A DNA stretch of 64,000 bases from a virus (IMGVR_UViG_3300033171_000001:1-64000), one strand, 5' to 3'; counted from the first letter of the stretch, positions 9,171-33,929 are shown. The notes: generated by a model not told the origin, from the letters alone. A program made the numbers and translations.

Positions 9171-9209
9171 ACTATAACAGAAACGCAAGTAAATGTCAAG
9201 CATTATTTT
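9171..9209 (-). promoter_or_regulatory. sigma70-type promoter; 32-bp identical to 33891-33922
   Basis: TTGACA-N17-TATAGT with A-rich upstream tract. Confidence 0.8.
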
Positions 9210-9222
9210 CATATTTAGGCTC

Positions 9223-10032
9223 TTATAAACAAATATCAAACGCCACCCGCAAGTCATCTCTGTCTAGTCCAATATAACGCCTTGTGATCGCTGTCGAACT
9301 GTGATTGAGACATTGCGAGATTATTTCGATATCTACGTTGGCATCAAAAACAGCCCTGGCCCACGTCTTTCTCATAATTCGCACACTCAATTCAATTCCC
9401 AAGGCTTCCCCGATCTCTTTAAGCGTTTTTTGAAAATAACCCGGCTTCATTTGAGCAGTATTCCTAACAGAACACACTAAATAGCCATCATGATGCCTTC
9501 TAAGTTCTAGCCACTCATTCAAAATTTCAGCCATAGCCGCGTTTATATAGATGTCACGCCTCTTTCCCGTCTTTCCCTCTCTTATTGGGAAACTATGCCC
9601 TTCTTGGATGATGAAATTTCCTTCCTGGTCAATAGGCAAGCCCATCTCCTCAATTCTAATATTTAAAATGTCCCGGCCCCTCAATCCTGTATTGATCCCA
9701 AAGATGAAGTAACAAAGGTTCCTAACCGCCGTCTTATGCGGGAAGCTGGCACGGATGAATAGTTTGATTTTCTCAATTGTTGCTTTGTCTTTAATAGGAT
9801 ATTGAAACAACACTTTATCCTTGTTGGTGCGTTTAACAACATACTTTCCTTTCTTCACCTGGACTCGCTTGGTGGTTGCGGGCCGTCCCCCCGTTTTCTT
9901 CTTAGGTTCATCTTTCTTGTAACAGTAATGAAGTTCACCAGTAAGATACCAGCAGCCACACCGGACACATTTGATGAATCCAGCTTGCTTGACCGATTCA
10001 AGGATTGCTTCTTTATTCAGTGAAAGCGACAT
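9223..10032 (-). CDS. tyrosine recombinase/integrase (ATG 10032; the ORF-track start overlaps its own promoter)
   Basis: NTGLRGRDIL (R), KTGK, RIMRKTWA, LNHSSTAITRRYI (H, Y); promoter TTGACA-N17-TATAAC at 10075-10103. Confidence 0.85.
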   Translation of the reverse strand: MSLSLNKEAILESVKQAGFIKCVRCGCWYLTGELHYCYKKDEPKKKTGGRPATTKRVQVKKGKYVVKRTNKDKVLFQYPIKDKATIEKIKLFIRASFPHKTAVRNLCYFIFGINTGLRGRDILNIRIEEMGLPIDQEGNFIIQEGHSFPIREGKTGKRRDIYINAAMAEILNEWLELRRHHDGYLVCSVRNTAQMKPGYFQKTLKEIGEALGIELSVRIMRKTWARAVFDANVDIEIISQCLNHSSTAITRRYIGLDRDDLRVAFDICL

Positions 10033-10151
10033 AATTAAGCCTCGTACTTCAAATTTGTGTTTCAGTTGAGAGTTGTTATAGCGCATTTTTAGGAGACTGT
10101 CAAGCAAAAAAAGTGAGAGGTGATGCAAGTTTAATCGCATCACCTCTCTGG

Positions 10152-10264
10152 TAAATAGAGCGGGTCAGGCATTACTCTGACGCTTGCACAAGGGGGGGTC
10201 GTTTTTTGTGCTGTGCTGTACCGTTCCACACTGTGTTTCTATTTCAACACCGCCGCTCTATTTA
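10152..10264 (-). ncRNA. putative structured ncRNA 3' of the tRNA
   Basis: Perfect 12-bp closing stem TAAATAGAGCGG/CCGCTCTATTTA with three to four internal hairpins. Confidence 0.5.
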
Positions 10265-10269
10265 AATCT

Positions 10270-10362
10270 TGGGCCTACCGCACGGAATCGAACCGTGGCT
10301 AACCGCTAATCTGGCGTTCGAGTTTATAAGACTCGTCGTGCTTCCAATTACACTACGGTAGG
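10270..10362 (-). tRNA. tRNA, anticodon UAU (Ile, reads AUA), long variable arm, encoded CCA
   Basis: Acceptor CCTACCG/CGGTAGG, D loop with GG, anticodon stem CGAGT-CTTATAA-ACTCG, T arm CACGG-TTCGATT-CCGTG, C73-CCA; 93 nt. Confidence 0.85.
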
Positions 10363-10545
10363 ATCATATGTTTTCCGAAATTCATGGCAGTAATCCCCAC
10401 CTATTACCACCGAATGCCCCCCGAATACGCTAGCAGGGCATTCTCCCATTTATCAATGGCGAGTGTTCTTGATTATCCAGCACGGCTCGGACCATTTCTG
10501 GTGACAGGTAGAAACCGAATTGGCCTCGCTCATTTACCCGTTCTT

Positions 10546-10574
10546 CTTATACACCAAATGAATCAATTTGTCAA
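10546..10574 (-). promoter_or_regulatory. promoter for the leader RNA/tRNA transcript
   Basis: TTGACA-N17-TATAAG with extended -10 TG. Confidence 0.75.
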
Positions 10575-10708
10575 GAACTTTCTAAAGAAAATTTGGGCGA
10601 ATTTGCTACGCGGGTTTCGCCCGGACTTCGATAGAGCCGCTGCCTTTGGCAACGCCTTCAAAAATCTAATATAAATGTTAGTTAAAGTGAGTTAAGATAA
10701 CAAAGGTG

Positions 10709-10957
10709 TTATGTTAACCAATACTCCTCTTGATTAGAATATTCTTCCTCAAATATATAATTAAAACCATCCATGTTTGCCCTAAGAGCTTCAAAAATCC
10801 CAGAAACAGAAGTTAGATCAAAATCCCCTTCTCCAAAATGTGTGGATAGGGAGGCAATTTCCTTATCTCCTACATATAAAAAGTACACATCAAAACTACC
10901 ACAACATTCACACTCACATGAAATTACGGATAGTTTAATTTTAGTTGGTTCGGGCAT
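10709..10957 (-). CDS. small acidic hypothetical protein
   Basis: 82 aa, CECECC motif. Confidence 0.55.
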   Translation of the reverse strand: MPEPTKIKLSVISCECECCGSFDVYFLYVGDKEIASLSTHFGEGDFDLTSVSGIFEALRANMDGFNYIFEEEYSNQEEYWLT

Positions 10958-10968
10958 TATAATTATTC

Positions 10969-11862
10969 CTATTTAAAAATTTCTCTTCTAATTTCATCAA
11001 TCTCACCAAGAGAGTGATCTCCCACATCCACTAGGCTTTCCTTATGCCACAAAAATAGAGAAACATCAACCCCACAGAGAGATATTTTTTCAGAAACTTT
11101 TCTAGCCGCATATTCACCAGCTTCATCCGGGTCAAATAAAATCGTAACCTTACTAACTCCTTGTTTCTTTAGGAAATTTATTTGTTTGTTAGTGACTTCA
11201 ACCCCCATCGTAGCCACAGCACCACTACCAAATCTCCAGGCGTCTGTCAAGCCTTCAACCAACACGGCATGGGAGCCAACTTCATCCAAACCATATAGGC
11301 ACTGTTTTACAGGAATGATTGAATCTTCCGCAGAAGCGTTCTTATACCTTGGTTCAATGCTATCAAAAATTGCTCTGCCTAGATAGGAAACAATTCTATT
11401 TTGCATGAATATAGGCACGATTATTCTATACTGCCATCTTTTATTTAACATGCCGAAGGCTTTCAAGTGATAACGTAAAGAAAGAAAGTCAGGATCAAAT
11501 CCCCTATCTAACAGGTATTGCCTATGCGGAGATGGTAGAAAGTCAACCATTCCTTGGGGAAATTTCAAGGTTCCTGTTGTTGTTTCTTGTTCATAAATAA
11601 AATCAACTTTCGCTTTCTTAAATTTAGCATATACTAATGAAGATTTATCTTTCGTGAACCATTTTACATATTCATATATATTAGATTTGTGATTGCAAAT
11701 GAAGCACGACACTTTTCCGTACTGAATATTAACACCACAGTGATTTCTAGTATCACCACAAGACGGGCAAATAGGCAAACCTAAATAACCCTTGCCTATG
11801 TTATTACCTTCTCTCTTGTAAGGAACTTCGCAGGAATCAAGAAATTGAAGTGTGTTAAGCAT
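10969..11862 (-). CDS. DNA primase (Zn finger + TOPRIM)
   Basis: CPSC...CFIC; LVEGLTDAW; LFDPDEAG. Confidence 0.85.
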   Translation of the reverse strand: MLNTLQFLDSCEVPYKREGNNIGKGYLGLPICPSCGDTRNHCGVNIQYGKVSCFICNHKSNIYEYVKWFTKDKSSLVYAKFKKAKVDFIYEQETTTGTLKFPQGMVDFLPSPHRQYLLDRGFDPDFLSLRYHLKAFGMLNKRWQYRIIVPIFMQNRIVSYLGRAIFDSIEPRYKNASAEDSIIPVKQCLYGLDEVGSHAVLVEGLTDAWRFGSGAVATMGVEVTNKQINFLKKQGVSKVTILFDPDEAGEYAARKVSEKISLCGVDVSLFLWHKESLVDVGDHSLGEIDEIRREIFK

Positions 11863-11864
11863 AT

Positions 11865-13547
11865 CTATCTTAGAACTCTTTTAGCAGTTGTATTTTTATA
11901 ACCAAGTACGCCCATTATATATTCGTCCAATGTATTGGGAATATACGGATAAACAATCTCACATTCCCTTGTCTGCCCCACTCTGTGAATCCTGTCCTCA
12001 GCTTGAGCATGAACAACCGCCTTCCAATCAAATTCACTTTGCACCATATACGAAGATTTAATCAATGTCAAGCCTTCAGAGCAAGCATCTAGAGATAAAA
12101 CAATCAGAGACTTCTTGCCCGCTTCAAAATCAGAAACAGTTTTTGTTCTAACTTTTCCACTTGTTCCACCTGAAATATATAAGGCTTTGTTTCCATAAAT
12201 TTCTTTATATTTTTCAAACACTTCCTTATGATAACAGAATAAAACAACGGATTCCCCTTTTTCTATCTGCTCATCAACCAAAGAGCATACGGCAGGAACC
12301 TTATATAAACCAATATCTATTCTAGCTCGTTGTATTGTCTTGTCATCTCGGAATTTTGCTGGAATTGATTTTAGTTTCTTAAATTCAGAAAATTTTCTAA
12401 CTGAGTTAAAATTTTCTAACTGAAATCTATATATACTATTCTTACAATATCCTTCTTTCAATTCAATAGGCAAAAACATTCTGGTTTTCTTTGGTAATTG
12501 AATTTCAATATCACTTTTCTTTCTTCTTATTAAATAGCACATCTTCAAGATTCTGGTCAACATTCTGATATTGGATGCACCAGTTGAGATGTTTCCATAT
12601 TCCCCTCTTTTCAAATCACAGAATGTTTTCTCATATAGTTTTTTGTTGTTCCAAATAAATTCTGGATCAATCAAACTCAATATGTTTCGCAAATCTCTGA
12701 CATAGTTCTTAATAGGCGTTCCAGATAAAGCAAGGGTGAATTTAGAGTTGGCGCAAATCTGTTTTAACACCCTTCCTCTTTTACTATCCCCCTTAGCATA
12801 GTTATGAGCTTCATCAATGATAATATAATCAAATTTCTTCTTGATTAATTCTTTTCTAAATTTATGAAGCAAATCATTATTTATGATTGAAATTTTGTGC
12901 GTCCTAATAAGGGATGGGAGGGAGTCGGCATATATAGTCGCCACAGGGTAATCCGGCATCGCGCATTTGTTCCATTCCCGCCCCCAATTCCCCTTGACTG
13001 AGTTGGGGCAAACGATCAAAACTGTGTCAAGTGTTTTTTCATCTTTTTTTGTAACGTGTTTTGAGTGGAAATAGTTATAAACCGATATGGCTTGACAGGT
13101 TTTACCTAGTCCCGGCTCGTCGCCAAGGATTGCACCTCTCATTCCGTGGGAAATTCGCTCTAGAATTGATTCTAAGCCGCTTTCCTGATAAGGCAGGGGG
13201 GTTAGTGTGCCAAAGCAAGCAAAATTCGTTCTAGGGGCAATCTCGCTCGATTTAGAGATATTACCCTTAAGCCAGGAATGAAAGTCTCTAGCGTCCTTAT
13301 ATCGCGGAGAAGTCAAAAGCCGTTGTGACTGGGCGGGGAAGTATTTGTTTATGATCTTTTGCGCCTGTTCTAGCTGAAAGGCCGGAATAGCGTGCTGTTT
13401 GTATTGTAGAAGATATAATACACCAAACAAAGAACAAAGTTCATTGTGCAAGTGATAGTGTTTTGGCAACGTGATATAAAAGAATTTCATATAATCCGAA
13501 GTACTTAGAATTGAAAAGTTATACTTTTTGAAGACGTGACAAAGCAC
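11865..13547 (-). CDS. SNF2-family (SF2) helicase
   Basis: LGDEPGLGKT, IIDEAH, LSGTPIKN, EGLTL, QAEDRIHRVGQ. Confidence 0.9.
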   Translation of the reverse strand: MLCHVFKKYNFSILSTSDYMKFFYITLPKHYHLHNELCSLFGVLYLLQYKQHAIPAFQLEQAQKIINKYFPAQSQRLLTSPRYKDARDFHSWLKGNISKSSEIAPRTNFACFGTLTPLPYQESGLESILERISHGMRGAILGDEPGLGKTCQAISVYNYFHSKHVTKKDEKTLDTVLIVCPNSVKGNWGREWNKCAMPDYPVATIYADSLPSLIRTHKISIINNDLLHKFRKELIKKKFDYIIIDEAHNYAKGDSKRGRVLKQICANSKFTLALSGTPIKNYVRDLRNILSLIDPEFIWNNKKLYEKTFCDLKRGEYGNISTGASNIRMLTRILKMCYLIRRKKSDIEIQLPKKTRMFLPIELKEGYCKNSIYRFQLENFNSVRKFSEFKKLKSIPAKFRDDKTIQRARIDIGLYKVPAVCSLVDEQIEKGESVVLFCYHKEVFEKYKEIYGNKALYISGGTSGKVRTKTVSDFEAGKKSLIVLSLDACSEGLTLIKSSYMVQSEFDWKAVVHAQAEDRIHRVGQTRECEIVYPYIPNTLDEYIMGVLGYKNTTAKRVLR

Positions 13548-13587
13548 CGGAAATTTTCTAACTTCCGGTTTCTCTAGTCAAGGGGGA

Positions 13588-13616
13588 ATGATAGCAAAAA
13601 ATACAGTAAAAGTCAA
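13588..13616 (-). promoter_or_regulatory. sigma70-type promoter for helicase/primase
   Basis: TTGACT-N17-TATCAT. Confidence 0.65.
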
Positions 13617-13682
13617 GCAAAAAGAAAGGGCAAGAGCTTATTTAGCCCTTGCCCGGTTTCTGGTGGTGTTAAAATACTAGTC

Positions 13683-14243
13683 CTAATATTCTGGTGACAT
13701 GGGCATAATAATCCCCAAATATTCAGGACTATCTTCAATTGTAAAAAAGCAAGGGTCCTTCTTTCCTGTAAATTCAAATTTTATACGCGCATTTTTTCCA
13801 AATGCTTTTTTTATTAGATCGAAACAAGAATATGGAAAGCAAATTTCGGAAAGGTCTTGTTTTGATTCGCGTCTAGCTAGAACTTGTTCAAAATCGGGGT
13901 ATTGATAATCCCTGAAAGCCTCCCCTGGTTCAATATAAATTTCTTTTTCGTATGTGTCCATGAGCGTAAGGCGTTCTCCTTTGTATATAATATTATATGC
14001 GTTTTTCTTCTTAGATTCTTTAACAAGGCTGAGGGAAGGTTCAATAAGAATGAACTCTTTTCCTACAATAAAGGGAGTGTCTTTATTAGGATTCTCATAC
14101 ATAAGGAGAGCATGACCATTTAAAGCACAAATTCTAAGAGGATCAATATAAATGCAAGAGATGGCTTCCAGTGATTTTTTATTAGAGATAAACGGGTAGA
14201 CAGTTGAAAAAGCCTTTGCCGGGATACTCAGGGAAATTTCCAT
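13683..14243 (-). CDS. DNA sliding clamp (beta) domain-like protein
   Basis: ICALNGHALL, YPDFEQVL and C-terminal GIIMPM resemble DnaN domains; half length. Confidence 0.65.
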   Translation of the reverse strand: MEISLSIPAKAFSTVYPFISNKKSLEAISCIYIDPLRICALNGHALLMYENPNKDTPFIVGKEFILIEPSLSLVKESKKKNAYNIIYKGERLTLMDTYEKEIYIEPGEAFRDYQYPDFEQVLARRESKQDLSEICFPYSCFDLIKKAFGKNARIKFEFTGKKDPCFFTIEDSPEYLGIIMPMSPEY

Positions 14244-14336
14244 TGCAAAAAACTCCTTTAAGTTATGTTAATTAAAAATAGAGAATACTAGCCTAAACCA
14301 ATATTTTCTATTTGTCAAGCATTTTTTCGCCTGTTT

Positions 14337-14690
14337 CTAATTCTTCAATGCAACGTGAACAAATCCGCTTTCCTGGTCATAAGAGGTTGTAAGCTTGCGC
14401 CCTGACTTTTTAGCCCAATTGAAAAGAGTGGTCCTGAGAGTTGCGGCCTTTTTCTGGTCCTGAGCGGGAAAGCTGGCGAAACTGTTCCCGAGATTCAGCA
14501 GAAAATCATATTTGGAACCGCGCTTGCCGCCATTTCCGCGCTTTGCCTTGGGCATTTCTCCGGCCTGAATAGAAACGCCTTCAGGAATTGCGGCGGTTTT
14601 CGTCATTTCCTTGATCGAAGTGTTTTCCCGATTTTCGATTTCAGGAATAACAGTTTCCATTTCCAGATTTTCAGTCTTCTTCTTTGCCAT
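14337..14690 (-). CDS. hypothetical basic protein, possibly DNA-binding
   Basis: 117 aa with RBS; KRGSKYDFL motif. Confidence 0.6.
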   Translation of the reverse strand: MAKKKTENLEMETVIPEIENRENTSIKEMTKTAAIPEGVSIQAGEMPKAKRGNGGKRGSKYDFLLNLGNSFASFPAQDQKKAATLRTTLFNWAKKSGRKLTTSYDQESGFVHVALKN

Positions 14691-14812
14691 TTCTAAAGCT
14701 CCTTTGTTTTATTTGAATTCCGTTCAACTGTTTTGTGTTCTAGCAAATCTGGTTCAATTTGTCAACCCCTTTTTTATAATTTTTATAGCCTCCCTTTTCA
14801 ATCAAAATCCGC

Positions 14813-14922
14813 TTGACATTTTCCAGCTATTACCATATAAGAAAGGCCGAATCGAGGGGAGAAAGGGAAAGATTGAAAAACATAAAAAACAAGTTGACAA
14901 TCAAAACGAAATGATATAGAAA
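14813..14922 (+). promoter_or_regulatory. tandem early promoters
   Basis: TTGACA 14813 with TATAAG at 17 bp; TTGACA 14894 with TAGAAA at 17 bp; divergent TTGACA on the minus strand at 14313-14318. Confidence 0.7.
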
Positions 14923-14956
14923 CAAATCAACTTGAACACCAAAAGGAGTTTAGAAA

Positions 14957-15196
14957 ATGAAAATCAAAAAAGAAGAAATAAAACTATGCCCTAAATGTCA
15001 TGGAAAAAGATTAGAATATTTTACGCCTTTTGAGCGGCAAGGAGATGCTAGAAGCGGCGGCGGCTACCATGATAAATATGAAATTTGCGAATTATGCGGC
15101 GGTTTGGGTACTGTATTAGAAAAAACAACGATTGAGTATAGCAGTTTGGCAGATTTTGATTTTAAACGGTTTGCACGGAATTATAAAGGAATTTAG
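14957..15196 (+). CDS. small protein with DnaJ-type Zn-finger motifs
   Basis: CPKCHG ... CELCGG; RBS AAGGAG. Confidence 0.7.
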   Translation: MKIKKEEIKLCPKCHGKRLEYFTPFERQGDARSGGGYHDKYEICELCGGLGTVLEKTTIEYSSLADFDFKRFARNYKGI

Positions 15197-15199
15197 AAA

Positions 15200-15418
15200 A
15201 TGAAAGTCAGGGTAAAGCCAGAATATGATTTTTTCGGAAGCTTAATTTATACAGGGTGCCCATTTAAAACAGATGTTGGATTATGTTATTTACTTGAAAA
15301 CACCGATTGCCCTACCTGGAAAGCAGACCCTAACGAGGCAGGGGAAGAAATTATAGCCATTCCAGATCAATGTCCTTTGCTTATGGGCACCGTGACTGTT
15401 GAAATGGAAATACAATAA
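15200..15418 (+). CDS. hypothetical protein
   Basis: 72 aa, RBS. Confidence 0.6.
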   Translation: MKVRVKPEYDFFGSLIYTGCPFKTDVGLCYLLENTDCPTWKADPNEAGEEIIAIPDQCPLLMGTVTVEMEIQ

Positions 15419-15486
15419 AAATAACTTGACAGGAACTGAGATTTAGGCTAGAACAGATTCAACACAAACAAAAAGGAGTTTAGAAA

Positions 15487-15996
15487 ATGCAGACTATTCA
15501 AGAATTTGTTAATAATCACCCCGGCATCGGCTACTCTGTAACTTGTATTGATCAGCGGCCCGATGTTTCCCCTAATGATGATTGGCATTTTCCTAAGAAT
15601 CCCAATAACAAACCCTTTGACTATGAATTTTGTATTACTTTCAAGGGAAGGGAATATAGGGGGTATTACTCAAAGGGAATCGGTCACGGAAAGGAAACAG
15701 CTAAAATAAAAGGTAATACGATCAGGGAAAATAAGAAAAGGGCTGAGGTTAGGGCAAAGGATCACAAGAACGCCGCGCCCACGTTGTTTGAGGTGTTGGA
15801 TTCCCTGGCCCTTGATATTTCCGATATCTTCTATGGGGGCACGTTTGAAGAGTGGGCCGAAGGTTTGGGATATGACGCGGATTCCAGACAGGCCGAAAAG
15901 ATTTATAATCAATGCCGAGCCGCCTTCCATTCATTACTTGCCTTGTTTGGTATGGAAAGGTTGCGGGAACTTGTGGAAGATACGGAAAGGGAGTAG
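15487..15996 (+). CDS. conserved-looking phage early hypothetical protein
   Basis: Promoter at 15426, RBS AAGGAG; TFEEWAEGLGYDADSRQAEKIY motif. Confidence 0.75.
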   Translation: MQTIQEFVNNHPGIGYSVTCIDQRPDVSPNDDWHFPKNPNNKPFDYEFCITFKGREYRGYYSKGIGHGKETAKIKGNTIRENKKRAEVRAKDHKNAAPTLFEVLDSLALDISDIFYGGTFEEWAEGLGYDADSRQAEKIYNQCRAAFHSLLALFGMERLRELVEDTERE

Positions 15997-16159
15997 ACAA
16001 AGTTAAAAATGGATATTGTCCTTATTGTGGCTATAAAACAGCAAAAGAAGTTCCGAGTAAAGAAGCTGTTTATAAATGTTCAACTTGTAGGAATACTTTT
16101 CAATATCAAGATTTCGGAAAAATTCAATATAATCTAAGAATTAGAAGAGACATACAAAA

Positions 16160-16531
16160 ATGACCAAACAAGAAAAGCAGATCAAGGCGTTGAAAAGAGG
16201 ATTGATAACCATTGAAAAGAGGTTGCAAGAAAAGGTTTGGGACGCTGAAAGGGAAATGGATTCCTTGAATGATGAACTTGAAATAAAACAAAGGGAAATA
16301 GATAGACTTGAAGACGAAATAGCAAAAGCGGAAGAGGAATATATAGAGCTTGAAGAATTGAAACAAAAGGATATAAACGAAATATACAGAGAACTTGAAG
16401 AAATGCAAAAATTTAAAGTTGCCTATTTTGAAATTCTCCAGGGATTTACAGGCAAGTTGACAAGAATTGAAAAGCAGAAACGAGAAAACGAAATTTTGAG
16501 AAAAACAATTGACTTTTTCCCGGTGTTTTGA
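16160..16531 (+). CDS. coiled-coil hypothetical protein
   Basis: Heptad-rich, 123 aa. Confidence 0.7.
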   Translation: MTKQEKQIKALKRGLITIEKRLQEKVWDAEREMDSLNDELEIKQREIDRLEDEIAKAEEEYIELEELKQKDINEIYRELEEMQKFKVAYFEILQGFTGKLTRIEKQKRENEILRKTIDFFPVF

Positions 16532-16578
16532 TATACCTTGATTTAGTTGAACGGAACACCACAAAAGGAGCAAACAAA

Positions 16579-16914
16579 ATGACTATCGAAAGAATTGAAG
16601 AGTTGCGGGAAGAGATTCAGGAAGTCAAGGCAGAAATGGCTAATTTTGAAATGGACCCTTACGAATATGAAGATCAGTATTGCGAAGCTCTTGATGAGGA
16701 GGGGCCGGTTGTGGTGGTGGGCATGTCCTATGACCCTTCGCACATTCTTAGGGAAGTTGACCCTACCGCGTACCGCTGCGGATTGCTTGACTACGTTGAT
16801 TCTTTGGACAAGGAAGATGACGAAGAATATCAGGAATTGGAGGAACGCCTTGAAGAATTGGAGGACGAATTAACGGACCTGGAAAGCGAAATGGAAGAAG
16901 AGGAGGAAGACTAA
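16579..16914 (+). CDS. highly acidic early protein
   Basis: ATG 16579 after AAGGAG; D/E-rich, ends EMEEEEED. Confidence 0.75.
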   Translation: MTIERIEELREEIQEVKAEMANFEMDPYEYEDQYCEALDEEGPVVVVGMSYDPSHILREVDPTAYRCGLLDYVDSLDKEDDEEYQELEERLEELEDELTDLESEMEEEEED

Positions 16915-16916
16915 CC

Positions 16917-17085
16917 ATGACACTACAAGAGATAAAAGAATCCGTGGACAAGGGAAAGGTTGAAGGACAATATAGGGCAATATCTGATAGTTTGTGCAGC
17001 TAATAATTCTTGCATTGGACTTACATGGCAAGACGGCGTGACGCTCAATGGAAGGGAAGACGATTTTTATATTAAGGAGGACTAG
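16917..17085 (+). pseudogene. small early gene broken by an internal frameshifting deletion
   Basis: MTLQEIKESVDKGKV stops early; the second frame continues KDNIGQYLIVCAANNSCIGLTWQDGVTLNGREDDFYIKED*; 169 nt span. Confidence 0.55.
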
Positions 17086-17087
17086 AG

Positions 17088-17339
17088 ATGAACTACCAGC
17101 AAGCAAAAGAAAACACCTTCGCCAAGGGTTCTTGCCCGGACGGATACGCCGGAGAACGTGCTAACATAGAATTTTACTTTGACCCTGAATCGGGAAAGAC
17201 TTTTTGTGTAGCCGATCATGGCCTTTTCGGGTCACTTCTCCCGCAATGTGCAAGCGAAGCTGAGGCGGCTTGGTATCTTGTGAATCATCCCAAAATGTGC
17301 CGCTATTACAGAAACGCGAAGTTGATAAAGGAGTTTTAG
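17088..17339 (+). CDS. hypothetical protein
   Basis: RBS GGAGG, 83 aa. Confidence 0.7.
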   Translation: MNYQQAKENTFAKGSCPDGYAGERANIEFYFDPESGKTFCVADHGLFGSLLPQCASEAEAAWYLVNHPKMCRYYRNAKLIKEF

Positions 17340-17341
17340 TA

Positions 17342-17572
17342 ATGAAGAATTATACCTACACCTTCATGGCTAAGGGCAGCGGCCCGCTTAATATAGAGGC
17401 CACCTCTTTTGCTGAAGCGTGTGATATTTTGGAAACAATGGCTACAACTTCGGAAGATATAAAAACAACTAAAGAATATTTTTCTTTTGAGGGGCCGGGT
17501 TGTTTTTATCACGTTCTTAGAGATGATCGGACAAGTGAAACCTGGACTAATTGCGGACTTGAAATTTTCTAA
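17342..17572 (+). CDS. hypothetical protein
   Basis: ATG 17342 after AAGGAG. Confidence 0.65.
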   Translation: MKNYTYTFMAKGSGPLNIEATSFAEACDILETMATTSEDIKTTKEYFSFEGPGCFYHVLRDDRTSETWTNCGLEIF

Positions 17573-17706
17573 CTCAAAATTTTCTAACTCAAATATACAA
17601 ACGAATTTCAATCAGTACAAAAAATAAAAAGTCTTGACAAACCAAAGCAAATCATATAAAGAATAAAAGACCGATCAAGACAAGGGAACACAAATACAAA
17701 GGAGTT

Positions 17707-17910
17707 ATGGAAATGGGAAAGTATGACAAAATGACACAGGCGGAGTTTGCCCGTATTCTTGAGGAAAAATATTATCAGCTTCATCCGGGGGAGGTGCTTA
17801 GTATTCCAGGTGTTTGGGAACTTGTGTCTGAATATCTTAATAATGAAATTTTGGAAGCATGGGAGGCAGAACAAGAGATTGAAGAGGAAGAGGAAGAAGA
17901 GGACGACTAG
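17707..17910 (+). CDS. small highly acidic protein
   Basis: Promoter at 17634, RBS; ends EQEIEEEEEEEDD. Confidence 0.75.
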   Translation: MEMGKYDKMTQAEFARILEEKYYQLHPGEVLSIPGVWELVSEYLNNEILEAWEAEQEIEEEEEEEDD

Positions 17911-18488
17911 AAACCAAACAAACCACAAACCAAACCAAAGCAGAAAGGGCAGGAGGAAAACAAACCTCTTGCCCTTTTCATATGTACAAAGCAAAGCTAA
18001 ATAGAAACAGCCAAGCAATCAAAAAGAAGTTGAATAGTTGATAACAAAGAAAGAAATTTTGAAAGCCGTATAAAAAGAATATAGGCCGAAATGCTAATAT
18101 ATAGGCTTCAGGGTAATCCGGCTTTTCCGTGTAACCCGACCCCGCGCCGATCCTGGCCGGACTTTCGGGTTGATAACGATTTTCAATTGATAGTGAAAAT
18201 CAACTGTCATTATTTTGACGCTCGATTGTCAATGAACAAGCCGTATGGATTGCATTGTGTCAATATAATGACGCAATGTCCAGGCACAATCCGGGCGCAA
18301 TGTCAACGGGATATATACGGGAAAAACGAAAAAATGTCAAGGTGAAAGGCGATGCACAAATGATAAAGTCTGTCAAGCATTTTTTGCGATTATCTGAAAA
18401 AATATTGCGCTGCCGTGGGTGGAGTCATTACCATATATAAGAGGGGAAAACAGAGCTGGAAAAAATCAAAAAAATATGAAAAAACAGG

Positions 18489-18517
18489 TTGACAAGCTGG
18501 CCGGGAAAAAATATGCT
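18489..18517 (+). promoter_or_regulatory. early promoter
   Basis: TTGACA-N17-TATGCT. Confidence 0.7.
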
Positions 18518-18562
18518 CCAGGCAGATTGATTGATTGAACCTCAAAAAATGGAGATGGAAAA

Positions 18563-18655
18563 ATGAAACGTGAAATGGTAAATCATCTGGTCAATTGCCT
18601 GTTATCGGCATTTTGTGGCGTGATGCTTGGTATCATGTTCGGATATGGGTTTTAA
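18563..18655 (+). CDS. 30 aa membrane peptide (not in ORF track)
   Basis: MKREMVNHLVNCLLSAFCGVMLGIMFGYGF after a GGAG RBS. Confidence 0.5.
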   Translation: MKREMVNHLVNCLLSAFCGVMLGIMFGYGF

Positions 18656-18674
18656 AAAATAAGGGGAAAATATT

Positions 18675-23718: not shown

Positions 23719-24671
23719 TGATGACTTTTCCAAAAGAAGGGATTAATGTTCTAAGTTTGTTTGATGGAATCAGTTGTGGTCAGGTGGCACTGGAACGAGC
23801 CGGAATCAAGGTGAATAAATACTTTGCCAGTGAAGTAGATAAACACGCCATAAAGGTTACGTATAAAAATTATCCTGACACGATTCAATTAGGAGATGTT
23901 AGAGAAATACAAGGAAAAGATTTGCCAAAGATTGATTTATTGATAGGCGGTTCTCCCTGTCAAGGATTCTCTTTTGCTGGAAAGCAGTTGAATTTTGACG
24001 ATCCCCGAAGTCAGTTGTTTTTTGAATATGTCCGATTGAAAGAAGAATGTTGCCCTCGATGGTTCCTTCTTGAAAATGTTAACATGAAAAAGGAATGGTT
24101 GAAGGTAATAGATGAAAAATTAGGCGTTGTTGGAATTAAAATAAATAGTGCATTGGTATCTGCTCAAAATCGAGTTCGCTGGTATTGGTCAAATATTGAT
24201 TTTGATATACCAGAAGACAAAGGAATACTCTTGAAAGATATAATCGGAAAATATGATGGCGTATATGTTGTACCAAGAGGAACTAATAAAGGAGGCATTA
24301 AGGAATATAAAGGCAAATCCCCTTGTATAACCACTTCTGCTTGGCAACATAATTTTTTTATAGTAAATACTGATGACGAATATGTGGATAGGGATAAATC
24401 GCACTGTATAGACGCTTCATATTTTAAAGGTGGTAATCTTAATCAATATTTCAATAAGTCGCGTAGACAATTGGTCTTTGATAAATATGGATGTTCTTTT
24501 AGAAAATTTTATGTTAAAGAGTGTGAAGCTCTGCAAACCTTACCTATTGGATACACAGAAGGTATTTCAGATTCACAGGCGTACAAGGCAATAGGAAACG
24601 GATGGACGGTAGATGTTGTTGCTCATATTTTTTCAAAACTAAAGGAAAAGTTAAATGCTAAAATGGATTGA
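23718..24671 (+). CDS. DNA (cytosine-5)-methyltransferase
   Basis: LSLFDGI, GGSPCQ, LLENV, QNRVR, IGNGW. Confidence 0.92.
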   Translation: MMTFPKEGINVLSLFDGISCGQVALERAGIKVNKYFASEVDKHAIKVTYKNYPDTIQLGDVREIQGKDLPKIDLLIGGSPCQGFSFAGKQLNFDDPRSQLFFEYVRLKEECCPRWFLLENVNMKKEWLKVIDEKLGVVGIKINSALVSAQNRVRWYWSNIDFDIPEDKGILLKDIIGKYDGVYVVPRGTNKGGIKEYKGKSPCITTSAWQHNFFIVNTDDEYVDRDKSHCIDASYFKGGNLNQYFNKSRRQLVFDKYGCSFRKFYVKECEALQTLPIGYTEGISDSQAYKAIGNGWTVDVVAHIFSKLKEKLNAKMD

Positions 24672-24876
24672 TGTAGAAGAAGAAAAACCCATTCATTCAG
24701 GTGAGTTGATTCTAGGCAAGGGTAGCATATCCAACTCCCTTGTGATGTGCTATTATAGAGAAACGGTGGATGTGTTTGTGAACGCCTTTGATAAAACACA
24801 AATGCTGTCTGTTAAAAAATATGTCTATATGAAAGATGTGTTTGATGAACTAAATGGGAATGAGAAGGGAGAATAA
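24655..24876 (+). CDS. hypothetical protein (DUF551-like start)
   Basis: KWIDVEEEKP pattern. Confidence 0.55.
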   Translation: MLKWIDVEEEKPIHSGELILGKGSISNSLVMCYYRETVDVFVNAFDKTQMLSVKKYVYMKDVFDELNGNEKGE

Positions 24877-25230
24877 GCATGAAAATCTATTTACTGAATG
24901 GAGAAACTGGAACATATTCAGATAGAATGGAATGGAATTGTTGTGCATATAATAATAAAGAGGAAGCAGAAAAAATTCAAAAAGAGTTGACTGCCTTTGA
25001 AGATTGGCGGTGGCAGCGTAATCCTAATTGGAAACCATATACGGATGCGCCAAAATATCCAAATCGTGAAATAGATAAAATTCCTAAAGGAAAGCAGCAT
25101 TTATCAAAGTATTATTTCGACGGTAAATTTTATACACGCGACAAATGTTATTTTGATGTTGTGGAAATAGAATTATATTAGTATTAAATATGTGTTTGAT
25201 GAACTAAATGGGAATGAGAAGGAAGAATAA
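24836..25230. repeat. 41-bp direct repeats (24836-24876 and 25190-25230) flanking one ORF
   Basis: ATGTGTTTGATGAACTAAATGGGAATGAGAAGG(G/A)AGAATAA, 1 mismatch. Confidence 0.9.
24879..25181 (+). CDS. hypothetical protein between direct repeats
   Basis: 100 aa ORF. Confidence 0.65.
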   Translation: MKIYLLNGETGTYSDRMEWNCCAYNNKEEAEKIQKELTAFEDWRWQRNPNWKPYTDAPKYPNREIDKIPKGKQHLSKYYFDGKFYTRDKCYFDVVEIELY

Positions 25231-25232
25231 AT

Positions 25233-25955
25233 ATGTGGATGCGATTGGAACACGGTGATTGCTTGGAGAAGATGAAGGATATTGAAAGCGGCAGTATAGA
25301 TATGGTTCTCGCTGATCCTCCCTATGGAACAACTGCATGTAAATGGGATACCTGTATTCCTTTTGGGCCGATGTGGAAAGAATTAAAACGGATAACAAGG
25401 AGAAATACCGCCATTGCTTTATTTGGAACAGAACCTTTTAGCAGTTTATTAAGAGTCTCAAATATAACTGAATATAAATATGATTGGATATGGGAGAAGT
25501 CTAAAGCCACTAATTTTTTAAATTCTAAAAAACAACCACTTAGAGCCAAGGAAAATATTTCTATTTTTTATATAAAACAACCCACATATAATCCACAAAA
25601 AACGGCAGGAAATTCCTACAATAAAGGTGTGCGAAAGCAACAAACAGAAAATGATGTATATGGTAAATACGCACAAGTAGAAGTTAAGTCCACAGGAGAG
25701 CGTTTACCTAGGGATGTTTTATATTATAAAACAGCGGAATCTGAAGGGAAGATTTTTCATAAGACACAAAAACCTGTATCCCTTATGGAGTATATGATTA
25801 AGACCTATACAAATGAGGGGGATACTGTTTTGGATTTCACTATGGGAAGCGGGACAACAGGAGTAGCCTGTAAAAATCTTAATAGAAACTTTATTGGAAT
25901 TGAATTAGACAAGGATTATTTTGAAATTGCTAAAAAGAGGATTCAAGAAGCATGA
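25233..25955 (+). CDS. DNA amino-methyltransferase (N6-A/N4-C, beta class)
   Basis: DPPY; HKTQKP; VLDFTMGSGTT. Confidence 0.92.
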   Translation: MWMRLEHGDCLEKMKDIESGSIDMVLADPPYGTTACKWDTCIPFGPMWKELKRITRRNTAIALFGTEPFSSLLRVSNITEYKYDWIWEKSKATNFLNSKKQPLRAKENISIFYIKQPTYNPQKTAGNSYNKGVRKQQTENDVYGKYAQVEVKSTGERLPRDVLYYKTAESEGKIFHKTQKPVSLMEYMIKTYTNEGDTVLDFTMGSGTTGVACKNLNRNFIGIELDKDYFEIAKKRIQEA

Positions 25956-26236
25956 AGAAAGATATAAAACAAATAGCCAAAAACTTCTCTGTAACCCTGC
26001 CGGATGATTTTGTTGAATCCCAAAATAGTATATTGGATAGCAAAAGAGAACTCCCCTTGCGGGATGTTCTTAAAAAGATTGCAGACACCATTCCTATTTG
26101 GGAATGTATTGAATTGAAAACAATATATATGGAGGGTGGATTAAGAAAAATCAAAACCAACACCCGCCTGATTGCCAAAGAACACCATAACAAAGAAACA
26201 GATTCCTACCATTGGGAACTTCTTGTTTCTGACTAA
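25952..26236 (+). CDS. hypothetical protein
   Basis: 94 aa, coupled to the upstream stop. Confidence 0.55.
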   Translation: MKKDIKQIAKNFSVTLPDDFVESQNSILDSKRELPLRDVLKKIADTIPIWECIELKTIYMEGGLRKIKTNTRLIAKEHHNKETDSYHWELLVSD

Positions 26237-26242
26237 ATCACA

Positions 26243-27115
26243 ATGAAAGCAGAAAAGTTAATAGAAAAATACTTCTACCAACAAGAAGAGGATGATACTA
26301 ATGAAAATCAACCTCAAATATGTTCTGTGAAATGGTGTACCAAAGAGGCGTACCAGAATGATTTATGTGAGTCCCATTATAACTACGCTAGAAATGGATT
26401 ATATTTCAACACAGAACTTCAAGAGAAGAAGTATTTAAAAAAAGCAAAGTCAGGAAACAAAGGGAAAAAGAACTTCTGCTGCGTCAAGCATTGTTACAAA
26501 AGAACAACCAATCCAAATAACCCATATTGCAGACAACACACAAGACAGTTAAAGAAGTATGGTTATATTCTTCATCTAGGAGGCAGAAAGCCCTTTGTCA
26601 CCAAACACACATTCTTTGTTAAATTACATTTTTATTCATTTCAAACAGCAAGTTGGAACTACATAGCCGTTGACAAGAAGGATATTTATAGAGTATCATG
26701 TCTTAAATTGTTATTTGTAGAAAGCACTAAGAGTTGTATTGTTGTAAATAATGATGGAACATATACCAATCTTAAACAATACATATATGGTGACGGAAAG
26801 AGTCTACCAATTATTCAGGCAAACGGAGATTGGCATGACTTCACAAGAAAGAATCTTATTCAGGTAAGCACAACTGAATATAAATTGTTTAATAAGAAAA
26901 TAGGAAAATCCGGTATAAAGTGTATATTCCGAAATCCCTACACACAAAGATGGTATTTCTATTTACGATTAAAAGAGTCAGATATAAGAATATTTGAGAA
27001 GTTCAGAACAAAAAGAGAAGCAAAGAGATTCAGGGATAGAATTTTCATAACCCTATTCGGAAATAAATTTTTAAATCTAATAAGAAAGCAGGAACGAGAA
27101 TATGGAAGAAATTGA
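26243..27115 (+). CDS. degenerate HNH/AP2-type homing-endonuclease-like protein
   Basis: Two C-x-x-x-x-C...C..H modules; ANGDWHDFTRKNL; KSGIKCI..RWY..F.TKREA AP2-like end. Confidence 0.55.
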   Translation: MKAEKLIEKYFYQQEEDDTNENQPQICSVKWCTKEAYQNDLCESHYNYARNGLYFNTELQEKKYLKKAKSGNKGKKNFCCVKHCYKRTTNPNNPYCRQHTRQLKKYGYILHLGGRKPFVTKHTFFVKLHFYSFQTASWNYIAVDKKDIYRVSCLKLLFVESTKSCIVVNNDGTYTNLKQYIYGDGKSLPIIQANGDWHDFTRKNLIQVSTTEYKLFNKKIGKSGIKCIFRNPYTQRWYFYLRLKESDIRIFEKFRTKREAKRFRDRIFITLFGNKFLNLIRKQEREYGRN

Positions 27116-27290
27116 GAAACCAGTCTGCGTGTGGTATAAGCGTCCTATTATTTTAGTATTATATATTGTATTATTTATCTGGTCCTGCTTTAGTTATTTT
27201 TATGAAACGGTAAGTATGCTTTTATTTGGGGATCTGTCTTTGCTTTCGGATTGTGTTGAATATGTAGATGAGGATGATCAGGATGAGTGA
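27102..27290 (+). CDS. small membrane protein
   Basis: Hydrophobic stretch. Confidence 0.5.
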   Translation: MEEIEKPVCVWYKRPIILVLYIVLFIWSCFSYFYETVSMLLFGDLSLLSDCVEYVDEDDQDE

Positions 27291-27786
27291 TTTGGAAACA
27301 GAAAATAGAATGGTCCCTAAGCTGAAAACAACCGATTTACAAAATAATGATCTCGGTATTCTGTTTTGGGATGCAACACATAAATGTTTGGAAACCTGTC
27401 CAATTTATGGAGATTGCCCCTATGCAGGTATTTCCATGAAGTGCGATTTATGCTATCGTTTTCTAAATGAGGTAAAAAATGCAACAGTTGCTTCATTGGA
27501 AAAGAACAGGGCAAAGGAATATCAAAAGCACCTTCTAGGCACAGGAGTATTTGCTCTCTGGACACAGTGGCTTCAGTTGGAAATCATTCGCATATCTCTT
27601 GAGAATCCTGTTTATACAACACCAAAAGGCGAACCAAAGATTCACCCTGTATATAAGGCGCAGCGAGAAGTGTTTAGTTCCTTGAAGAATATGTATGAAT
27701 CAGTGTTTGGAAAAGAAGCCGCACCTAATATTCTCGATGAAATGACAAGTGTAGATAGTTTGGCAGAAGCATTAAGAGAAGAATAA
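27268..27786 (+). CDS. probable terminase small subunit
   Basis: Upstream of TerL; KGEPKIHPVY motif. Confidence 0.55.
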   Translation: MRMIRMSDLETENRMVPKLKTTDLQNNDLGILFWDATHKCLETCPIYGDCPYAGISMKCDLCYRFLNEVKNATVASLEKNRAKEYQKHLLGTGVFALWTQWLQLEIIRISLENPVYTTPKGEPKIHPVYKAQREVFSSLKNMYESVFGKEAAPNILDEMTSVDSLAEALREE

Positions 27787-30967: not shown

Positions 30968-32167
30968 ATGAAAAAACACTATGTGGTAGACACAAACGTC
31001 CTCATTGATTCCCCTCATGCAATTGAATCTCTCAGAAACGGTAAGGACGGCGGCGATACCAATGAGGTTTACCTGCTTGAAACGGTACTTAATGAGGTAG
31101 ATGGCCTGAAGAGGAAAACCACCCTCAAATCCATAGTTCAAAAAGTAGTAGCAAACCTTCATTCCCTTGCAGACGAAATAAATTACTTCGAAAATGAAAC
31201 TGTTTCTACGAATATTTCTGAAAATCCAGATGACAGAATCCTAGCTGGTGTATTAATGGCCGAAGAGGAGTATGACGCTCCGATGATTCTATTAACCAAT
31301 GATAGAGTGCTTCAACTAAAAGCTAATTTTCTTGGTATCCAGGTTGAAGAGTTCAAGGACAGTATTCCCTTTAATAATGAGGAAGATATTAACACTGGAT
31401 TTGTTGAGTCAAAAGATGATTTTAAGTACGTTAACACTTTCTGTTTTGATAATGGGATTCTTCTTTTTAATGGTAAGGATGAAATCAAACCGATTGGATA
31501 TGAGAATAAAGTATGGGCAACCAAACCTAAACACTATACACAGAACGCCGCATTTGAACTTCTCCTGAATGATACTATCGATCTAGTCACGCTTTCCGCT
31601 AGTGCCGGTATGGGGAAAACCCACTGTGCGGTTGCTTCGGCTCTTGATGCTGTTCTGCAAAAGAAGAAGTATGAAAAGATTTATATATTTAAATCAATAG
31701 AAGATGTTGGGCCATCTATTGGTTTCCTTCCAGGGACTATGGAAGAGAAAATCGACCCCTACATGCGCTACATAAAGAGCATGTTCTTTAAACTGCACAA
31801 TATGAGAAAGGGCAATGGAAAAGTATTTCTTGATGATAAAACATTGAATCCAGAATTTGTCGAAATCCTTCCTTTGACATATATTAGAGGCATGAACATA
31901 GATAACGCCTTTGTGATTATTGATGAAGCACAAAACATATCCCGTCTAAATATGCGATCCTTGCTTACTCGTATGGGGGATAACGTGAAGTGTGTCGTAT
32001 GCGGCGACCCTAATCAAGTAGATAATCCTAATCTAAGCAAAGAGAATAACGGCCTCAATTGGTGTGTCAAGTTGTTCAGTGGAGCAGATAACTATGGACA
32101 TATTCAATTAGGCGGCAAGAAAAGTCGTGGACCTATATGTGATTTGGTTCTTGAAAAGAAATTATAG
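30968..32167 (+). CDS. phoH: PIN-PhoH family protein
   Basis: VVDTNVL, NPDDRIL, LLTND; SAGMGKT, YIRGMNI, IIDEAQN, CGDPNQVD. Confidence 0.9.
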   Translation: MKKHYVVDTNVLIDSPHAIESLRNGKDGGDTNEVYLLETVLNEVDGLKRKTTLKSIVQKVVANLHSLADEINYFENETVSTNISENPDDRILAGVLMAEEEYDAPMILLTNDRVLQLKANFLGIQVEEFKDSIPFNNEEDINTGFVESKDDFKYVNTFCFDNGILLFNGKDEIKPIGYENKVWATKPKHYTQNAAFELLLNDTIDLVTLSASAGMGKTHCAVASALDAVLQKKKYEKIYIFKSIEDVGPSIGFLPGTMEEKIDPYMRYIKSMFFKLHNMRKGNGKVFLDDKTLNPEFVEILPLTYIRGMNIDNAFVIIDEAQNISRLNMRSLLTRMGDNVKCVVCGDPNQVDNPNLSKENNGLNWCVKLFSGADNYGHIQLGGKKSRGPICDLVLEKKL

Positions 32168-32183
32168 AAAAATAAGATAAAAC

Positions 32184-32249
32184 TTGACTTTTTGGTTAAA
32201 ATTTGATATAATTCGTGGAAATTCGCGTTTATATCAAATTTTAACCAAA
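32184..32249 (+). promoter_or_regulatory. portal promoter overlapped by a 21-bp perfect inverted repeat
   Basis: TTGACT-N17-TATAAT; arms 32191-32211 and 32229-32249. Confidence 0.75.
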
Positions 32250-32262
32250 TAAAGGATAACCA

Positions 32263-33873
32263 ATGAGCACCCCTAATAAAATGACTGATGAAATGACCTT
32301 CGATCAGCGTCTTGAATATCTGAATACGCTTCCAGACGACCAATTAAGCCAATATCAATTTGCTTTGGTTCTGAATCCAAGTGACCCTACCACCACAGCT
32401 ACTTCCATGCGTACATTCGGAACACCTGACTACAGTTCTTATGGAATAAGGGAATTACAACAGGAACTTTGGCACGCCTTTCAGACAAACCCACAAATTT
32501 CGTCTGCCGTAAGAGACTACGTTGGACGAATGACCGGATATGGGTTTGAAGTTTATTCAGAGATTCCAGAAATTCAAGAAAAGATTGATGAAATCACGTA
32601 TGATTATAGAAACCGCCTTCATTCCTTGCTTCCTAAGTACGTAGGCAGGGCGCAGATTGAGGGGGAGCTATTTCTTGTATTAACTCTTCATAATGACGGA
32701 TTTGTTGAAATTGATTTTCGTGATCCATCCACTCTTGATGTTATTGGATATGATAATAGTGGAATTATTTATCATCCAAGAAAACCCGCCATGCCCATTG
32801 CCTATCAGTTCAAGTATAGTGGAGATGATCTACAGGACCATTATGAGCAGATTCCTAGTATTTACGTAGCAAGGTATCCTGAACTTGTTAATATTCTTAA
32901 ACAGCATGTTAATTATAATCCTGAATATATCAAAGAAAGTGTTGCCTCTACTAAGAAGTATAATTCAGTTGGAGGGTTTAAGCGTTTTGTTGTTCAATGG
33001 GATAAGGGATGGATGACTGCTCGTAATATTTCATATATTCGCACGGTCCTCACCTGGGTGAATCTATACGAACAGTTGAAAACATACGAAATTAACCACA
33101 AGAAGAGTTCCGGTGCATATCTTTGGGTTCTTGAGGCAGAAGACATTAAGACGTTTAGAGCGTGGATGGCTTTGACTGAAGAACAACGTGCTGAAACTGG
33201 TATTATGAAGAAGAAAGATGCAGGGGGAACACTTGTTGTTCCTCCTGGCATGAAGTTGAAGGCTATTAGTCCCACTCTTCCTAAAATATCCGATTCAGAT
33301 ACGGATGTGCTAGATTTTGTAACGTCTGGACTGAACACTACCGAGGACAGTTTGATTGGAAGAAGCAATCGAAACAAATCCTCCCTTTCACAGACGCACG
33401 GAACGCAACGGGATAGAACTTTCGATGAAATAGCTAATTTCGAGCGATTTCTAAAGTTCGACCTTTGGGGTAATGTGTTTTTCCTTGCTTCGGCTGTATC
33501 AGATTTTAAATACGTACATAAAATTAAAAAAGCAGTGGATTTTAATAAAAGTAAGAAACCTGTTTTTAAATTCAAATCATTCAATGCGGAAAGACTTATC
33601 GGCGTTACCTTCCCGCAATCTCACGCCGCCGGAAATGAGGAGACTGTTCGCGCTCTTCTTGGAAGCAAGCACGGTCCTGTTACTAAGTCCCTTGGTATTC
33701 CTGCAAGCAAGGTTGGAGAACTGCTGGGCTTTGGTGATTATCGTAAGTTGCGGTTACAGGCGGCAGAAGAGCAGGCGGCGTACCCTGAGCTAACATACGG
33801 GATGGACGAGGAAGCCGTTCAGGAGAAAGAGGAGGCTGAGAACTCAGTTACGACTCAAGAGAACGAGCAATAA
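32263..33873 (+). CDS. portal protein
   Basis: 536 aa between TerL and the protease; GELFL, LVVPPGMKLK. Confidence 0.75.
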   Translation: MSTPNKMTDEMTFDQRLEYLNTLPDDQLSQYQFALVLNPSDPTTTATSMRTFGTPDYSSYGIRELQQELWHAFQTNPQISSAVRDYVGRMTGYGFEVYSEIPEIQEKIDEITYDYRNRLHSLLPKYVGRAQIEGELFLVLTLHNDGFVEIDFRDPSTLDVIGYDNSGIIYHPRKPAMPIAYQFKYSGDDLQDHYEQIPSIYVARYPELVNILKQHVNYNPEYIKESVASTKKYNSVGGFKRFVVQWDKGWMTARNISYIRTVLTWVNLYEQLKTYEINHKKSSGAYLWVLEAEDIKTFRAWMALTEEQRAETGIMKKKDAGGTLVVPPGMKLKAISPTLPKISDSDTDVLDFVTSGLNTTEDSLIGRSNRNKSSLSQTHGTQRDRTFDEIANFERFLKFDLWGNVFFLASAVSDFKYVHKIKKAVDFNKSKKPVFKFKSFNAERLIGVTFPQSHAAGNEETVRALLGSKHGPVTKSLGIPASKVGELLGFGDYRKLRLQAAEEQAAYPELTYGMDEEAVQEKEEAENSVTTQENEQ

Positions 33874-33890
33874 AAAATTAAAAATAATAC

Positions 33891-33929
33891 AAAATAATGC
33901 TTGACATTTACTTGCGTTTCTGGTATAAT
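33891..33929 (+). promoter_or_regulatory. head-operon promoter; inverted duplicate of 9178-9209
   Basis: TTGACA-N17-TATAAT. Confidence 0.85.

Follow-up and report, generated by a model that had tools for sequence, protein, structure and literature searches.

Twin near-consensus promoters in inverted orientation ahead of the replication-initiator and head operons of an uncultured phage, probably made identical by short-tract copying

The stretch of DNA analysed here, called the window below, comprises bases 1-64000 of the virus record IMGVR_UViG_3300033171_000001 (G000; 85,259 base pairs, bp), which by its gene content represents a siphovirus-like phage. It contains a perfect inverted repeat of 32 nucleotides (nt), with one copy at 9178-9209 on the minus strand (copy 1), the other at 33891-33922 on the plus strand (copy 2), and 24.7 kilobases (kb) between them. 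Both copies are intergenic and appear to belong to strong promoters, of which copy 1 faces genes for a Zn-ribbon protein, winged-helix proteins and a replication initiator, and copy 2 faces the genes for the head maturation protease and the major capsid protein. An earlier note on this DNA had described the duplicate as exact, and it is exact at both of the positions given there.

No third match to the 32-mer was found in the window at up to three mismatches, and in 100 dinucleotide-preserving shuffles two matches never occurred. The earlier note left open whether more copies lie in the rest of the genome; across all 85,259 bp of the record there are two in total, one forward and one reverse (0 in a backwards-read control), and no third one is present in G000 even at up to ten mismatches. 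Beyond the exact 32-mer, five of the seven further bases through the -10 hexamer agree as well, which extends the similarity to 37 of 39 positions, while the flanks of the two copies are unrelated when anchored on the repeat. Copy 1 ends at 9209, and the gap to the stop codon of the tyrosine recombinase gene (9223-9225) measures 13 bp, as had been reported. Copy 2 is separated from the stop codon of its upstream gene by 17 nt.

Each copy consists of an A-rich upstream part of 10 nt, the -35 hexamer TTGACA, which matches the consensus at 6/6 positions in both, and a 17-nt spacer that ends in TGn and is followed by the -10 hexamer. In copy 1 the -35 hexamer occupies 9199-9194, 16 nt of the spacer lie inside the repeat, and the -10 hexamer TATAGT falls just outside it at 9176-9171; in copy 2 the -35 hexamer is found at 33901-33906 and the -10 hexamer TATAAT at 33924-33929, again just outside the repeat. 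Copy 2 thereby scores 12/12 and copy 1 11/12 against the consensus, each with the TGn motif, and both are the highest-scoring promoter-like sites of their regions. Both point towards their genes, with the ribosome-binding sites 17-41 nt downstream; these are AGGAG with the start codon ATG at 9147 after copy 1, and AAGGA with ATG at 33970 after copy 2. No terminator-like hairpin or other element was found beside either copy, and an Rfam scan of the window returned tRNA alone and no other RNA element. Judged by their closeness to the consensus, both copies are likely sigma70/sigmaA-type promoters of the extended -10 kind. The earlier statement that the identity covers the normally variable spacer stands for the 16 nt of spacer inside the repeat, which are private to the pair and have no spacer-like copies or half-sites elsewhere in the genome. 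The first 16 nt of the repeat (the A-rich part, TGC and the -35 hexamer) are not private in this way and resemble minus-strand promoter-like sites at 14328, 18386, 20967, 13626 and 76372.

The genes that the two promoters face were assigned by scanning 134 open reading frames (ORFs) against Pfam and 57 against PHROG, and they can be compared with those of G001, a related genome of 83,914 bp with direct terminal repeats that is rated complete. The first gene after copy 1 (8941-9156, minus strand, likely start ATG 9147) encodes a Zn-ribbon protein of 68-71 amino acids (aa), which is 59% identical to a Zn-ribbon protein of G001 called Zn-b here; family searches gave only sub-threshold generic Zn-ribbon matches for its naming. 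It is followed on the same strand by a winged-helix protein of 182 aa (8445-8993), which matches PHROG replication-initiation families and shares 76% identity with the N-terminal part of the G001 initiator of 660 aa, by a second winged-helix protein of 136 aa (8017-8427), also with PHROG replication-initiation matches, and by a full-length initiator-like protein of 678 aa (5968-8004), which is 36-38% identical to the 660-aa protein. After copy 2 comes the head maturation protease (33970-35157, plus strand; PHROG match), then a 227-aa gene, and then the major capsid protein (35864-37117, plus strand; Pfam Phage_cap_E). The assignment of both gene sets in the earlier note holds by these PHROG and Pfam matches, and its reading of the copies as promoters is supported by the promoter features, orientation and ribosome-binding sites. 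The gene upstream of copy 2 (32263-33873, plus strand) encodes 536 aa and has no Pfam or PHROG match; the G001 gene in the corresponding position is 71% identical to it. We read the G000 gene as the portal on account of its location, with the terminase and PhoH genes on one side and the protease gene on the other.

A search of IMG/VR with the protease protein recovered five related loci with 71-73% amino-acid identity, of which two belong to large records, G001 and G002. In all five the protease gene is preceded by a promoter of the form TTGACA-17-TGnTATAAT, with a spacer different from that of G000. The G001 Zn-ribbon gene is also preceded by such a promoter, again with a different spacer. 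Because the relatives have promoters at both places, the two promoter positions are ancestral. The exact identity of the Zn-ribbon and protease promoters, on the other hand, is specific to G000: the protease promoter is single-copy (at up to three mismatches) in G001 and in G002, a genome of 70,720 bp with 92-98% nucleotide identity to G001. The exact 32-mer had no match in IMG/VR, and its 22-nt core had none in metagenome contigs. The winged-helix protein and an alignment of the initiator, used as queries, recovered G001 alone in IMG/VR, and the initiator alignment recovered nothing in metagenome contigs.

G001 possesses a promoter twin of its own, which is a perfect 32-bp repeat comprising the -35 hexamer, the spacer and the -10 hexamer, at 24571-24602 and 25533-25564. 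These copies are direct repeats about 1 kb apart. The one at 24571-24602 precedes a 74-aa Zn-ribbon gene (Zn-a) and a methylase, and the one at 25533-25564 precedes the 68-aa Zn-b gene and the 660-aa initiator. The upstream DNA of the G001 twins is unrelated, their leaders diverge right after the repeat, and the proteins Zn-a and Zn-b are only 42% identical. A second repeat in G001, of 23 bp including the -35 hexamer, lies at 16292 and 22789. Since G001 has its own direct 32-bp twin, exact promoter twins recur in this lineage, with varying geometry.

How unusual such identity is can be judged from a strict scan for promoters (at most one mismatch per hexamer, a 17-nt spacer and TG), which found five in G000 and nine in G001. 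Thirteen of these 14 were compared with each other, giving 78 pairs; the G001 site 49900-49928 was omitted, as it was assumed to be intragenic. Over all pairs, a mean of 5.8 of 14 spacer positions agree (standard deviation, sd, 2.4) and a mean of 5.9 of 12 upstream positions. The Zn-ribbon and protease promoters of G000 agree at 14/14 spacer and 10/12 upstream positions, and the promoters of Zn-a and Zn-b in G001 at 14/14 and 3/12. Between the orthologous promoters of G000 and G001, the agreement in spacer and upstream part is 8/14 and 11/12 for the portal gene, 9/14 and 7/12 for the ribonucleotide reductase gene, 5/14 and 6/12 for the protease gene, and 5/14 and 5/12 for the Zn-ribbon gene. 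The portal and reductase promoters have retained orthologous similarity, whereas those of the protease and Zn-ribbon genes are no more alike between G000 and G001 than background pairs, which would fit a turnover of these two sequences by overwriting. The idea that the Zn-ribbon and protease promoters evolved in concert in each of the two genomes was considered and rejected: in G001 the Zn-b and protease promoters share 9/14 spacer and 7/12 upstream positions, and this spacer value is suggestive against the mean but not significant.

We think that a single strong host-type promoter is present here twice and that the identity of the 32-nt copies stems from recent short-tract copying between promoters, a reading to which we assign a probability of roughly 0.7. 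Copy 1 would fire leftward into the operon of the Zn-ribbon, winged-helix and replication-initiator genes, and copy 2 would fire rightward as a booster into the operon of the protease, the putative scaffold and the capsid. A short-tract copy, made by gene conversion or illegitimate recombination, would have overwritten the spacer of one promoter with that of the other; the copied tract would have stopped just before the -10 hexamer, so that each copy retained its own. The neighbouring tyrosine recombinase would play no part in this, and such homogenisation of promoters would be a recurrent event in the lineage. The 10-nt upstream unit of copy 2 is itself tandemly repeated inside an A-rich stretch, which hints at copy 2 as the source.

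Several points weigh against this reading. Promoter activity is deduced from the match to the consensus, and the 17 sequencing runs that hold this DNA include none recorded as RNA. Which promoter was copied onto which is not settled, because neither G000 copy resembles its G001 ortholog (5/14 each), and both G000 promoters may have been replaced. In addition, the G001 twins are identical at 32/32 positions although their leaders have diverged and the genes behind them are only 42% identical, and this fits selection acting on the spacer, as by a bound factor, equally well. Finally, the relatives represent one independent lineage, given the close identity of G001 and G002 to each other.

Such selection is the core of a different explanation, in which a protein of the phage or its host would bind the spacer and upstream part of both promoters asymmetrically and thereby switch the initiator and head genes together. 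Selection for the site would keep the copies identical, which would also be compatible with their origin by copying. It is in favour of a shared operator that the identity spans the 16-nt spacer, which is otherwise so variable among the 78 pairs, that the G001 Zn-ribbon promoter has likewise remained identical to its twin while leaders and genes diverged, and that promoters of nearly full consensus would otherwise be constitutive, which makes a repressor plausible. The G001 Zn-ribbon and protease spacers, with 9/14, tie for rank 5 of the 78 pairs, but this is only about 1.3 sd over the mean. A candidate regulator was not identified, the spacer is not conserved between G000 and G001, and the 32-mer contains no dyad and has no further spacer copies or half-sites in the genome. 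Moreover, the twin has different partners, the protease in G000 and a methylase cassette in G001, and this speaks against a conserved coupling of replication and head genes. We therefore regard a shared operator as possible but rather unlikely. Similarly unlikely, and perhaps a little more so, is that the 32-bp homology is a passive substrate for general homologous recombination, which would give rare isomers and drive module shuffling but serve no dedicated function. Among the phage proteins are RecA-like, SbcCD-like, RdgC-like and RusA-like ones, and copy 1 is located at a point where, in G001, about 3.1 kb of additional genes separate the recombinase from the Zn-ribbon gene. T4-type phages are reported to shuffle modules through recombination at repeated promoter cassettes (PMC2839356, PMC4122927). 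However, a 32-bp stretch is short for homologous exchange to be efficient, the genome has only two copies, and no isomer or breakpoint was seen at the 32-mer.

The earlier note had raised the inversion of the 24.7 kb between the copies by the adjacent tyrosine recombinase, with regeneration of both promoters, and we consider this very improbable. Indeed, the repeat is inverted and perfect, copy 1 lies close to the recombinase gene, and the enzyme retains the catalytic tyrosine and both arginines when compared with a XerC-like structure. On the gene map as we read it, no gene would be interrupted by a flip, and each would still be co-oriented with a promoter. The sites of Cre/lox, of Flp/FRT from the yeast 2-micron plasmid and of Xer/dif have inverted arms of 11-13 bp around a spacer of 6-8 bp, and Flp flips a large part of its replicon. 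G000 is similar to these systems in that one of two inverted repeats lies beside the gene of a small tyrosine recombinase that lacks an arm-binding domain, but it differs in that the 32-mer has no arms above background and in that G001 has kept neither the site nor its place beside the recombinase gene. For this test, 55 nt around copy 2 were searched for arms of 11-13 nt around a spacer of 6-8 nt, and the best lox/dif-like dyad has 8/13 matches, a score that 36% of 400 random 55-nt windows of the genome reach as well. The remark in the earlier note that the sequence has no obvious palindrome of this type is thus borne out. In G001 the recombinase gene (21640-22428) is followed by other genes, with no inverted repeat of at least 16 nt nearby, the protease promoter is single-copy, and the promoter twins are direct repeats, between which recombination would delete and not invert. 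The gene order in relatives, named in the earlier note as a way to judge the inversion, likewise speaks against it, as the orders from portal to protease and from recombinase to Zn-ribbon gene in G001 match the assembled isomer and not the flipped one. A block from the SNF2 helicase through the primase, tRNA, recombinase and Zn-ribbon genes to the initiator is in fact inverted between the genomes, lying on the minus strand in G000 (13547 to 5968) and on the plus strand in G001 (16525-27784), and the part of it held by G002 is also on the plus strand. This shifts the point of divergent transcription to the other side of the block and implies that large inversions are tolerated in the lineage, but this evolutionary inversion does not end at the 32-mer, and a search for inverted repeats at its actual ends gave nothing beyond chance-like matches of 70-80%. 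It is just as hard to credit that the recombinase or the general recombination of the phage flips the segment between the twin promoters in a Flp/FRT-like manner. Were this to happen, the flip would change which of the two modules, packaging or replication, is situated upstream of the initiator and head operons, and a flip during bidirectional replication could convert theta replication to a concatemer-producing mode for packaging. Practically negligible, finally, is the chance that the repeat, or the joins across it, result from mis-assembly, even though the ends of the record wrap into a variant strain. The 17 runs that hold this DNA are represented by Logan contigs (k=31) of sludge, landfill, wastewater and steel metagenomes, and the contigs of four of them (X1, X3, X7 and X9) were placed on positions 1-20000 of the window, and thus on copy 1 only. 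The 32-bp repeat is unbridgeable at k=31, and contigs stop inside it: X1 has pieces 1-9207 and 9180-16443, a piece of X3 ends at 9207, and a loose end at 9173 in both runs is a protease-side contig that ends in the repeat. These independent contigs enter the repeat from three of its four flanks, namely the Zn-ribbon and protease sides (X1 and X3) and the recombinase side (X1), and the gene order over both copies agrees with G001.

The tyrosine recombinase itself (9223-10035, minus strand) has its likely start at ATG 10035-10033 in an ORF that is open to 10143, and it matches PF00589 with an E value of 1.2e-18. Its catalytic domain is Xer-like and could be aligned to the structure 4a8e (E 3.5e-10), with an arginine in GLRGRD, an arginine in MRKTWA, a histidine in NHSS and the tyrosine in RRY, and with the histidine of the HxxR motif replaced by arginine; these catalytic residues are conserved in G001. 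It is a divergent PF00589 protein that stays under all NCBIfam cut-offs. The N-terminus carries a CxxC...HxC motif and a lysine-rich linker, and residues 1-90 have no Pfam or NCBIfam match; no core-binding (SAM-like) or arm-binding domain was detected in these searches, in agreement with the earlier description of the protein. A terminator-like hairpin at 10148-10115 is followed on the minus strand by a promoter with its -35 hexamer at 10103-10098 and the -10 hexamer TATAAC at 10080-10075, and because of this terminator-plus-promoter unit the recombinase forms a separate transcription unit. Upstream of it lies a 93-nt tRNA-Ile(TAT) (10270-10362, minus strand). A search of IMG/VR with the recombinase gave one 26%-identical match, in an unrelated 85-kb record without a protease match, and an alignment-based search of bacterial genomes found none. 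Eight matches were obtained in a protein collection, the best non-self one with 32% identity.

Among known systems, the outward promoters PL/OL and PR/OR of lambda are under one regulator, and their operators are dyad-symmetric sites of 17 bp that occur in triplicate, are similar but not identical, and flank the repressor gene. The pair in G000 resembles them as an outward-facing pair of related promoters for a leftward and a rightward operon, and differs in that the 32-mer has no dyad, a repressor was not identified and 24.7 kb lie between the copies. The stoperators of Cluster A mycobacteriophages are described as numerous, asymmetric and distant repeats bound by a known immunity repressor (PMC9283540). 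They share with the 32-mer that an asymmetric regulatory sequence is repeated at distant sites of a phage genome, whereas the 32-mer has two copies only and no spacer-like sites elsewhere. Stoperators and the lambda operators are looser parallels, relevant to the possibility of a shared operator. The closest known parallel is the promoter-early stem-loop (PeSL) cassette of T4-type phages, in which strong sigma70-like promoters are repeated as short portable homologies (Arbiol et al. 2010, PMC2839356; Comeau et al. 2014, PMC4122927). PeSLs consist of a stem-loop terminator and a promoter and occur in many copies that are clustered in hyperplastic regions (PMC2839356, PMC4122927). The likeness is that of a strong sigma70-like promoter that is repeated in a phage genome and, in the case of the 32-mer perhaps, associated with indels or replacements between relatives. 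The 32-mer differs in having two inverted copies far apart, without a stem-loop at either. Whereas PeSLs mark such joints in many copies, the 32-mer has only two, of which copy 1 lies at the place of the extra genes of G001, and the G001 twins flank the Zn-ribbon/methylase cassette. Two composites of a terminator hairpin and a promoter with a PeSL-like build do occur in G000, the recombinase unit at 10148-10075 and another at 13654-13588 (minus strand) before the SNF2 helicase gene, and neither is a copy of the 32-mer.

The ends of the G000 record agree exactly between 1-127 and 84283-84409 and then diverge, with 386 of 977 positions matching in an ungapped comparison of 1-977 and 84283-85259, where shorter matches at shifted positions also occur. 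The pattern points to a circular assembly of about 84,282 bp that continues into a variant strain, and because of the overlap of the record ends the genome size is taken as about 84.3 kb. A minus-strand module for replication and nucleotide metabolism extends from 56868 through the end of the record and on to 14690; among its genes are those for a family-A DNA polymerase, DnaB-like and SNF2 helicases, a RecA-like protein, a primase and a ribonucleotide reductase that bears an intein. On the plus strand, a unit between 14957 and about 56800 comprises small early genes, methylases, the terminase, PhoH, the 536-aa gene, the protease, the capsid, and tail and lysis genes. Close cultured phages were not found: neither the DNA nor the capsid had a match among 50,697 phage records, and the matches of the recombinase to cultured phages were all distant, with less than 33% identity.

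Some further features were observed in these genomes. The promoter before the 536-aa gene is embedded in an inverted repeat (32184-32249) with arms of 21 nt that are 100% complementary across a 17-nt gap, and its left arm is formed by the promoter spacer and the -10 hexamer. G001 has an equivalent inverted repeat of different sequence (41428-41467; 15 nt, 87% complementary, 10-nt gap), and because the dyad is conserved with changed letters, it is a better operator candidate than the 32-mer. The initiator region of G000 (5968-8993, minus strand) is a mosaic of the 182-aa protein, the 136-aa winged-helix protein and the 678-aa full-length initiator. The gene of the latter contains direct repeats at 7060-7169 and 7369-7414, and the G001 initiator gene holds repeats of 19-30 nt (26274-26408); the repeats in both genes are possibly origin iterons. 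A perfect 33-bp direct repeat (24836-24868 and 25190-25222), which comprises a gene 3' end and a ribosome-binding site, flanks a 100-aa gene at 24879-25181, the homolog of which directly follows the recombinase in G001, and this gene looks like a cassette insertion. The ribonucleotide reductase gene (58520-61573, minus strand) holds an intein with a LAGLIDADG homing-endonuclease domain, and four paralogous HNH endonucleases have exact repeats of 20-35 bp in common.

The twin promoters open no new mechanism, and a wider interest would arise only from the unlikely inversion. For annotation, they mark a promoter class and the starts of operons in an uncultured group of 84-kb phages. The promoter of the Zn-ribbon and initiator genes has an exact twin in two related genomes, with the partner and the orientation differing between them, and such short homologies may be considered as joints for module shuffling. 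If the reading of short-tract copying holds, the pair would illustrate neatly, on a small scale, the reuse and homogenisation of promoter cassettes by phages.

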